In this document: one piece after another, positions 6,675 to 7,399 of the stretch
Position numbering within the stretch: position 1 is the stretch's first letter
How the letters are laid out: each line of letters begins with the position of its first letter
Virus record (IMG/VR): IMGVR_UViG_2671180384_000010
Origin: a virus
Lineage: Duplodnaviria; Heunggongvirae; Uroviricota; Caudoviricetes
DNA: 7,471 nucleotides
Direction: 5' to 3' (one strand)
The notes under the pieces: generated by a model
Database searches by the model: none
Told to the model about the DNA's origin: nothing
What the model saw: the letters and a program-made list of their open reading frames with translations, nothing else
Translations under genes and position numbers: made by a program

Positions 6675-6706
6675 CCTTATGGACTTTGTTGTTTTAGTCC
6701 ATAAGG
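6675..6706. terminator. 11-bp inverted repeat, possibly a bidirectional terminator or protein-binding site
   Basis: CCTTATGGACT (6675-6685), loop TTGTTGTTTT, AGTCCATAAGG (6696-6706). It encodes the last residues of the convergent minus-strand ORF. Confidence 0.4.
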
Positions 6707-7012
6707 ACATATTTGCAGAGTGCAACGGTTATTAAAGCATTCATTCAATACGTTATCTGTATTTGTAGGGCATTCCTGGCTATTTTTGATTGAATTCCAG
6801 AATGTTTTATTGAATGGTACTACGTTGTAAATGGTTACAGGTAGCACTTTGTTATTGAGCATGATGCCTGTGTGAGTCAGTGTAAATATACTTTCAGGAG
6901 GTAAGAAAGCATCCGATTGATACCAGATTATTAATTTTATTTTACTCCATATGACTGAAAAAGATATTCCGCATGATGGCTGGATAACTGTATCAATCAC
7001 AATCCACTTCAT
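6677..7012 (-). CDS. Hypothetical 111-aa cysteine-containing protein in an AT-rich cargo locus
   Basis: ORF with AAGGAA Shine-Dalgarno 5 nt upstream of the ATG. AT-rich region. Opposite strand to the phage late genes. Five Cys residues and a hydrophobic N-terminus. No homolog recognised. Confidence 0.5.
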
Positions 7013-7041
7013 TTAGTTTCCTTGTTTATGCCTTGCTGGTG

Positions 7042-7068
7042 ATGTTCTGAAAAGTATAAATGATATTT
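7042..7068 (-). promoter_or_regulatory. Candidate sigma70 promoter for the 111-aa ORF: -35 TTTACA, -10 TATACT, 15-nt spacer
   Basis: Hexamers read on the minus strand about 30-55 nt upstream of the ATG. Short spacer. Confidence 0.3.
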
Positions 7069-7257
7069 TTGAATGTAAACCATAGAGCAGAATTATTTTT
7101 CTGATGTTGTTTATTGTTTATTTAAATGCAGGGTGGTTTATATCTCGTCTTGTAGTTTATCCATGCATATCTGCTTGATAATCAGGTTTTTATTTAAGGT
7201 ATGGTTTTGTGTTTTTTCTGTATTACATGTCAGGTATTTTAAAGAATTATTTTTCAG

Positions 7258-7399
7258 ATGGTGGAAAGAACCATGGCATTTAAACACTATGATGTTGTCA
7301 GGGCGGCGCCGCCGTCAGATCTTGCGGAAAAGCTGACACATAAACTGAAAGAGGGCTGGCAGCCGTTTGGTAGTCCGGTGGCCATAACCCCTTATACCC
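7258..7399 (+). pseudogene. Hypothetical phage late-region gene truncated by IS insertion (likely start ATG 7273, MAFKHYDVVRAAPPSDLAEKL...)
   Basis: ORF reads continuously into the IS terminus at 7400. Residues after that are IS-derived. Confidence 0.45.

Follow-up and report, generated by a model that had tools for sequence, protein, structure and literature searches.

An iraL Gene of the IraM Anti-Adaptor Family on an AT-Rich Island in a Lambdoid Prophage Late Region

Introduction

In 2014, IraL of strain CFT073 was described as the fourth anti-adaptor of RssB, 58.9% identical to IraM (Hryckowian et al., mBio, PMC4045071); the protein was formerly named YcgW and appears as c1429 among older locus tags (PMC12890032). 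Here we compare with these described systems an open reading frame (ORF) of 111 amino acids (aa) in a stretch of 7,471 nucleotides from a virus of the Caudoviricetes (IMG/VR record IMGVR_UViG_2671180384_000010), called the window below. On the basis of its sequence we identify the ORF as iraL, a prophage-borne paralog of iraM. The best explanation of the locus as a whole, with a probability of about 0.93, is that iraL is a moron, located on an AT-rich island of the late region, that is transcribed from its own promoter and stabilises RpoS by blocking RssB.

Most of what is known about IraL comes from the 2014 study (PMC4045071). IraL co-purifies with RssB, and in two-hybrid assays it binds RssB through the N-terminal domain only, IraL and IraM binding RssB differently. 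It roughly doubles the half-life of RpoS during logarithmic growth in CFT073 and raises log-phase RpoS in S. sonnei and, from a plasmid, in K-12. When iraL is deleted in CFT073 and S. sonnei, RpoS becomes less abundant in log phase and its half-life drops by half (PMC4045071). In CFT073, iraL mRNA goes up by 1.6 log2 at 37 °C, and IraL is increased in the fur mutant.

IraM of K-12 (b1160) belongs to the same NCBIfam family as IraL and has all five cysteines in common with it. It is an RssB anti-adaptor induced by Mg2+ starvation through PhoP, whereas IraL acts in log phase. Residues 1-78 of IraM were crystallised with RssB as a PmrD-like beta-barrel spanning the two domains of RssB and the helical linker, and IraM blocks the alpha4-beta5-alpha5 face of RssB needed by sigma-S (PMC10844676). 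PmrD itself (PDB 4HN7), a small protein which binds a receiver domain, shares this unusual fold with a root mean square deviation of about 1 Å (PMC10844676). It is a PhoP-activated connector that binds phospho-PmrA; the outcome concerns dephosphorylation of PmrA, whereas in the IraM family it concerns the adaptor activity of RssB. A further relative is found in phages that carry the genes of Shiga toxin (Stx) 2 or 2c, for example phage 2851, phage 1717, and the Stx2c prophage of O157:H7 (WP_001303568), where it has the same slot and orientation as iraL. The protein of the Stx2c prophage is 74% identical to IraL and 65% identical to IraM.

Identification of the Gene

The iraL coding sequence occupies positions 6677-7012 on the minus strand, starts with ATG, and encodes 111 aa followed by a stop codon. 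The initial annotation, which was made from the sequence letters without database searches, had described this ORF correctly, with an AAGGAA ribosome-binding site and five cysteines, but saw no homolog for it. The homologs are close. The NCBIfam model NF007393, "anti-adapter protein IraM", gave 162 bits against a cut-off of 121, with residues 1-110 aligned to positions 1-113 of the 114 in the model. The product is identical to CFT073 IraL at 110 of 111 residues, the sole change being L74S, and the coding sequences agree at 334 of 336 nucleotides. IraM of K-12 aligns with no gap over 107 aa at 61% identity, and nucleotide identity between the window gene and iraM is ~70%. In searches of the PDB, IraM 1-78 (8TWD) was found with E = 6e-31, or E = 1e-39 when the family profile was used; these searches returned no match besides 8TWD, and a sequence match to PmrD was not detectable.

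The gene is also widespread. Megablast of positions 6600-7300 against 5,426 complete E. coli genomes gave matches in 2,221 of them, and at least 80% of the query was covered at 90% identity or more in 1,427. In all genome matches listed, the RefSeq annotation names the ORF "anti-adapter protein IraM", which amounts to about 1,400 complete E. coli genomes with the supposedly unrecognised gene. When the whole collection was searched with the protein, all matches were Escherichia proteins that bear the name IraM. A protein-based scan of genome contigs located both genes in E. coli, iraL also in E. albertii, and iraM also in S. flexneri. Among the PHROGs, the ORF matches phrog_4407 (E = 3e-72), a family with no assigned function.

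Pfam was less informative. A local Pfam-A scan of the ORF yielded only a chance match (Nairovirus NSm, E = 0.056), and PF11183 (PmrD) was absent from the local results for IraL and K-12 IraM even at E values up to 10. Since K-12 IraM is also without a Pfam hit, the negative result for the ORF reflects a gap in the library and is no sign of novelty. In the precomputed annotation, 19 of 20 IraL homologs carry PF11183.15; this disagreement with the local scan is a discrepancy of version or threshold.

If the family has two such similar members in E. coli, then we can ask: Does the window gene belong with iraL or with iraM? In PMC4045071, a gene counts as iraL if its entire coding region is 95% or more identical in nucleotides to iraL of CFT073 and if it does not overlap with matches to iraM. 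To this come a promoter region at least 96% identical to that of CFT073, including the start site mapped by rapid amplification of 5′ cDNA ends (5′-RACE), and a context in the late region of a prophage. By coding identity, promoter, and prophage context alike, the window gene falls into the iraL subgroup; all criteria of the original paper identify it as iraL. The presumed novelty of the ORF is thereby answered by a clear match to a known family, an outcome which the initial annotation had itself named as decisive. The gene is a known and routinely annotated one; the observation is real but ordinary, and as a discovery it matters little, iraL having been described in 2014.

The ratio of nonsynonymous to synonymous substitutions (dN/dS, Nei-Gojobori) is 0.10-0.15 overall, 0.15 against iraM and 0.12 against the paralog of the O157:H7 Stx2c prophage, although dS is near saturation and these ratios are rough. 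Judged from such comparisons, the ORF is more than a chance reading frame, and the family appears to be under purifying selection throughout. A side observation concerns E. coli ECGI0523, whose iraM allele at the K-12-type locus has a stop after only 52 aa and is apparently a frameshifted pseudogene.

Promoter and Transcript Ends

The published 5′ end of the CFT073 transcript, ACATCACCAGCAAGGCATAAACAAGGAAAC (PMC4045071), has an exact match at window positions 7045-7016. Transferred from the 5′-RACE result, transcription starts at 7045 on the minus strand and the 5′ untranslated region (UTR) covers 7013-7045; the ribosome-binding site AAGGAA lies within it at 7018-7023, 5 nt upstream of the ATG. 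A sigma-70 promoter was assigned to iraL at the mapped start (PMC4045071). On the same strand we assign TATACT at 7053-7058, 7 nt upstream of the start site, as the −10 hexamer and, more tentatively, TTTACA at 7074-7079, with a spacer of 15 nt, as a −35-like hexamer. The mapped start bears out the suggestion of the initial annotation that the gene has a promoter of its own. A generic sigma-70 promoter scan missed this promoter because it requires a spacer of 16-18 nt and here the spacer is 15 nt; the two hits that it did return were both at chance level.

In CFT073, a fragment from −100 to +33 together with the coding region complemented the iraL deletion, and it raised RpoS in K-12 (PMC4045071). 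The corresponding fragment of the window is identical at 131 of 133 positions, with the −10 and −35-like hexamers unchanged. The differences are A for G at −1 (7046) and T for C at 7015 in the 5′UTR.

Control of the PhoP type, as for iraM in K-12, was considered and rejected: no alignment exists between the sequences upstream of iraL and of iraM, and a lone GGTTTA half-site overlapping the −35 region was judged insufficient. The K-12 iraM locus lies beside the e14 remnant, with an upstream region unrelated to that of iraL. This lack of alignment agrees with the different regulation reported for both genes. The upstream region of iraL aligns moderately with that of the Stx2c-phage paralog, whose promoter region is diverged. 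The AT-rich island may be under temperature control or control of the H-NS type. During lytic growth, Q-dependent late read-through would oppose iraL expression.

At the other end of the gene, a perfect inverted repeat at 6674-6707 on the minus strand (arms 6674-6685 and 6696-6707, loop of 10 nt) covers the last iraL codons and the stop codon, which falls in its right arm. The initial annotation had noticed the repeat at this place but measured it at 11 bp; repeat search and RNA folding give 12 bp. The hairpin forms in the minimum-free-energy fold, and the whole 131-nt segment has z = −5.8. The repeat is specific for iraL, being absent from iraM and from the Stx2c-phage paralog. IraL also has a C-terminal extension of 4 aa, QQSP (6677-6691, minus strand), relative to both paralogs, because their TAA stop codon is CAA in iraL; the Stx2c-phage paralog, for example, ends at 107 aa without QQSP. 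The repeat may serve as a stabiliser of the 3′ end or as a weak terminator. The next hairpin beyond it is the terminator of the STnc100 small RNA (sRNA) gene in reverse reading.

Place in the Late Region

The window contains three near-identical lambdoid late-control modules with antiterminator Q, a DNA methyltransferase, tRNA-Met(CAT)/Arg/Arg, and a structured GC-rich element, and the iraL island belongs to the third of them. The island, with iraL and its regulatory region, occupies 6644-7257, has a GC content of 0.319, and is 99% identical to the CFT073 locus. Its limits were set by alignment to a Stx1 phage and CFT073: the left one at 6643/6644 lies directly 3′ of the STnc100 terminator stem, and the right one, at about 7257-7272, just 5′ of the start of a DUF1737 gene at 7273. 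The AT-rich island reported by the initial annotation at 6677-7260 (GC 0.32, against 0.50 in positions 1-6643) was therefore correctly seen, as was the convergence of its ORF with late transcription.

The order Q, tRNA-Ile/Arg/Arg, STnc100, iraL on the opposite strand, DUF1737, holin, lysozyme is common to CFT073, E. coli 042, and phage vB_EcoS-640R1, iraL being convergent with the strand of Q, the tRNAs, and DUF1737. In CFT073 the island lies in the potB-island prophage in the same context as here, followed by DUF1737 and lysis genes, and over window positions 6420-7402 the two loci differ by 13 mismatches in 983 nt, of which 6 are inside the island. The foreign composition of the island, together with its recurrence in this prophage and in sequenced phages, upholds the earlier proposal that a moron was acquired horizontally. 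There are two differences in arrangement from CFT073. The DUF1737 gene is cut by IS600 in the window, unlike in CFT073, and CFT073 has a ~640-bp segment between the last tRNA and STnc100, with an ORF of 117 aa and a DUF3927 gene, which the third module lacks.

Is the island then in the position of the toxin genes, as the initial annotation supposed? In the Stx1 phage, STnc100 comes after stx1B and before the yjhS/nanS-p gene; the homology of this phage with the window ends exactly at the terminator stem of STnc100 and begins again where DUF1737 starts. In the O157:H7 Stx2c prophage, Q is followed by three tRNAs, stx2A, stx2B, STnc100, an IraM-family gene on the opposite strand, and an esterase gene. 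STnc100 is thus the border between the stx slot and the slot of the IraM family in Stx phages. Since stxAB lies upstream of STnc100, between it and the tRNAs/pR′, and the island lies downstream, the island occupies the neighbouring slot and not the position equivalent to the toxin. The stx-equivalent slot itself, from the last tRNA to STnc100, has no insert in the third module and holds the 117-aa ORF and DUF3927 in the second module as in CFT073. The lambdoid region from Q to lysis has at least two separate cargo slots split by STnc100, the first with stx or with the 117-aa ORF and DUF3927, the second with a gene of the IraM family. An AT-rich convergent ORF found in this region should be compared with IraM and IraL before it is called new.

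In the O157:H7 Stx2c prophage the paralog (3001-3324 of the locus examined) is convergent and lies just after stx2B and STnc100. By tblastn of a phage collection, IraM-family genes were found in 46 records; 41 of these carry the paralog of the 60-80% identity class, which is 71-73% identical to IraL, and almost all of the 41 are converting phages for Stx2, Stx2a, Stx2c, or Stx2k. Many of the 41 records leave the paralog unannotated, and a literature search on the Stx2-phage IraM paralog found nothing specific.

Protein Core and Cysteine Tail

The residues of IraM in contact with RssB were taken from PMC10844676 and mapped on the gap-free alignment of IraL and IraM. In cluster I, which contacts RssB's N-terminal domain (I4, I6, W22, K26, I42), all 5 of 5 are identical in IraL. 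In cluster II, which contacts the C-terminal domain, 3 of 5 are identical, and the two exchanges, T13S and L75I, are both conservative. In cluster III, which contacts the linker, 2 of 4 are identical, with H63N and I64V. This gradient may be connected with the reported binding of IraL to the N-terminal domain alone, which it fits. Position 74, where the window protein differs from that of CFT073, is variable in the family (S, L, or I) and is not among the listed RssB contacts.

The initial annotation considered a secreted or membrane factor because of a hydrophobic N-terminus. In fact, this hydrophobicity is only moderate: the best 19-residue Kyte-Doolittle mean is 1.44, and Asp7 lies inside the stretch. 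A crude hydropathy test revealed neither signal peptide nor transmembrane helix, and no pattern of n-region, h-region, and cleavage site was seen. The N-terminus aligns residue by residue with the beta-strands of the soluble core of IraM, and this homolog, IraM(1-78), was crystallised on RssB, a cytoplasmic protein. A novel secreted or membrane virulence or cargo factor in place of Shiga toxin could draw on the moderately hydrophobic stretch, on several cysteines, and on the location of the gene within the lambdoid cargo region between Q and lysis. However, the stx slot lies across STnc100, and in the Stx2c prophage examined stx2 adjoins the IraM-family gene, so that, with the soluble core and the missing signal pattern, this explanation is scarcely credible.

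The cysteines of IraL are C14, C81, C92, C97, and C102. The last four (pattern C-P-x9-C-x4-C-x4-C) belong to the C-terminal tail, residues 81-111 at window 6677-6772 on the minus strand. All 17 diverse members of the family that were compared, with identities as low as 53%, have these four, while C14 varies; the Stx2c-phage paralog has the same Cys4 tail and two extra cysteines. The IraM construct used for crystallisation lacks the C-terminal tail, and neither zinc nor cysteine is mentioned in the paper on the structure (PMC10844676). The Cys4 tail may be a metal or redox site.

A different role for the protein has to be weighed here: it could be a PmrD-like connector with another or an additional target, or a Cys4 metal or redox switch, for which stabilisation of RpoS is not the main role. 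The PmrD fold of the IraM core points in this direction, as PmrD binds another response regulator, PmrA (PMC10844676); so do the precomputed assignment of homologs to PF11183, the conservation of C81, C92, C97, and C102 in diverse members although the tail was cut from the crystallised construct, and the different binding of RssB by IraL and IraM (PMC4045071). On the other side, deletion of iraL lowers log-phase RpoS and halves its half-life, IraL co-purifies with RssB (PMC4045071), and we found no evidence for a second target. We regard this role as very improbable. A broader proposal is somewhat less doubtful, although still unlikely: IraM-family genes might hold a fixed, selected moron slot behind STnc100 and tie the RpoS level of the lysogen to phage or toxin biology, or the Cys4 tail, missing from the only solved structure, might act as a metal or redox switch on anti-adaptor activity. 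If true, either would add a feature to a family already known and would not be a new system. The invariant Cys4 tail and the apparently uncharacterised stx2-adjacent paralog are minor loose ends of the analysis, as is the composite, gap-containing window.

Predicted Function

By analogy with CFT073, the sigma-70 promoter of iraL would drive its transcription in the lysogen, starting at window position 7045 and against the direction of late transcription. The 111-aa product would be cytoplasmic, and its residues 1-78 would form a PmrD-like beta-barrel as in IraM. It would bind the response-regulator-like adaptor RssB via the N-terminal receiver domain, and the bound RssB would no longer hand sigma-S (RpoS) to the ClpXP protease. 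RpoS would then be stabilised in exponential growth, and the general stress regulon raised. For the window protein, RssB binding and RpoS stabilisation are carried over from a CFT073 protein that differs by one residue; its expression and activity, with L74S and the two substitutions in the promoter and 5′UTR, are likewise inferred. With iraL present, the host strain probably keeps RpoS raised while it grows exponentially; in E. coli and Shigella this trait has been linked to niche and pathotype.

Several points weigh against this reading of iraL as a working moron. Compared with CFT073, the window copy has L74S, an A in place of G at −1 (7046), and a T in place of C at 7015 in the 5′UTR. The prophage is degraded, with an IS600 that interrupts DUF1737 at a distance of 356 bp upstream of the iraL start site. 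As a scaffold with N gaps, the window may owe its local arrangement partly to assembly. Neither terminator scan nor folding revealed a canonical intrinsic terminator 3′ of iraL, the 12-bp hairpin having no U-tract. The AlphaFold2 model of IraL, built on an alignment of 16 sequences, has a mean pLDDT of 37 and is unusable, so the fold is deduced from the sequence match to 8TWD; the five strands and the helix 69-76 of the model are nevertheless compatible with IraM.

Some of these points could mean that the gene descends from iraL but is now carried silently in a prophage remnant that decays under IS insertions, untranscribed or impaired by L74S. The IS600 copies at about 2788 and 7401, the truncated DUF1737 gene, and the fragmentary, repeated window would fit such decay, as would the one nonsynonymous change and the two changes in the promoter and 5′UTR relative to CFT073. 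There is a precedent in strain JJ1886, whose second iraL copy has a mutation in the −35 element and whose expression was left unsettled in the paper (PMC4045071). However, the ORF is intact, and the fragment from −100 to +33 that was sufficient in CFT073 is present at 131 of 133 positions with unchanged hexamers. Position 74 varies within a family under purifying selection and is no listed RssB contact. We therefore rate a silent gene as highly unlikely and retain the explanation of iraL as a gene with its own promoter and a predicted role in RpoS stabilisation.

Neighbouring Features and Structure of the Window

The left neighbour of the island is the STnc100 sRNA gene at 6462-6651 on the plus strand (133.6 bits for Rfam family RF02076, whose gathering score is 47). 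Its intrinsic terminator, a GC-rich hairpin with a T-run at 6621-6642 on the plus strand, was found by terminator scan, as an inverted repeat, and in the alignment with the Stx1 phage. Counting this copy, STnc100 genes lie on the plus strand at 2417-2606, 5563-5752, and 6462-6651 (124-134 bits), each with a GC-rich terminator at its end. The right neighbour, at 7273-7402 on the plus strand, is the 5′ part of a DUF1737 gene, a late gene of the nanS-p type (Pfam PF08410, 57.6 bits), whose start was taken from the CFT073 annotation. IS600 truncates it at about codon 43, and the homology of the window to CFT073 stops at 7402.

The modules of the window are separated by IS600 copies and N gaps, namely an N run at 3923-3930 and a single N at 5787. 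The IS600 copy at 2790-3922 is 99.9% identical to annotated IS600; the 8-N run sits within an IS600 copy, and the window is a scaffold or a composite. At the single N, 42 nt of the iraL island are fused to the middle of the methyltransferase gene; this fragment, at 5745-5786, repeats positions 6644-6685 and includes the iraL stop codon. The three near-identical modules of Q, methylase, and tRNAs may be partly an assembly product. At the right edge of the window, 7401-7471 is the end of another IS600 copy, recognised as a direct repeat with the identical end sequence at 2788-2856. Both insertions (~2788-3922 and 7401-7471) have identical ends and a similar target, TA(T/C)CC|TGAGG.

Two observations concern other genes of the window. 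The 117-aa ORF in the stx-equivalent slot of the second module (4977-5330, plus strand) is moderately AT-rich and has no match in Pfam or NCBIfam; the DUF3927 gene (5366-5497, plus strand) follows next. The Q antiterminator at 3939-4511 on the plus strand has a zinc-finger segment of the DnaJ type (CXXCXGXG) at residues ~64-124, which overlaps the start of its Antiterm match (84-171).
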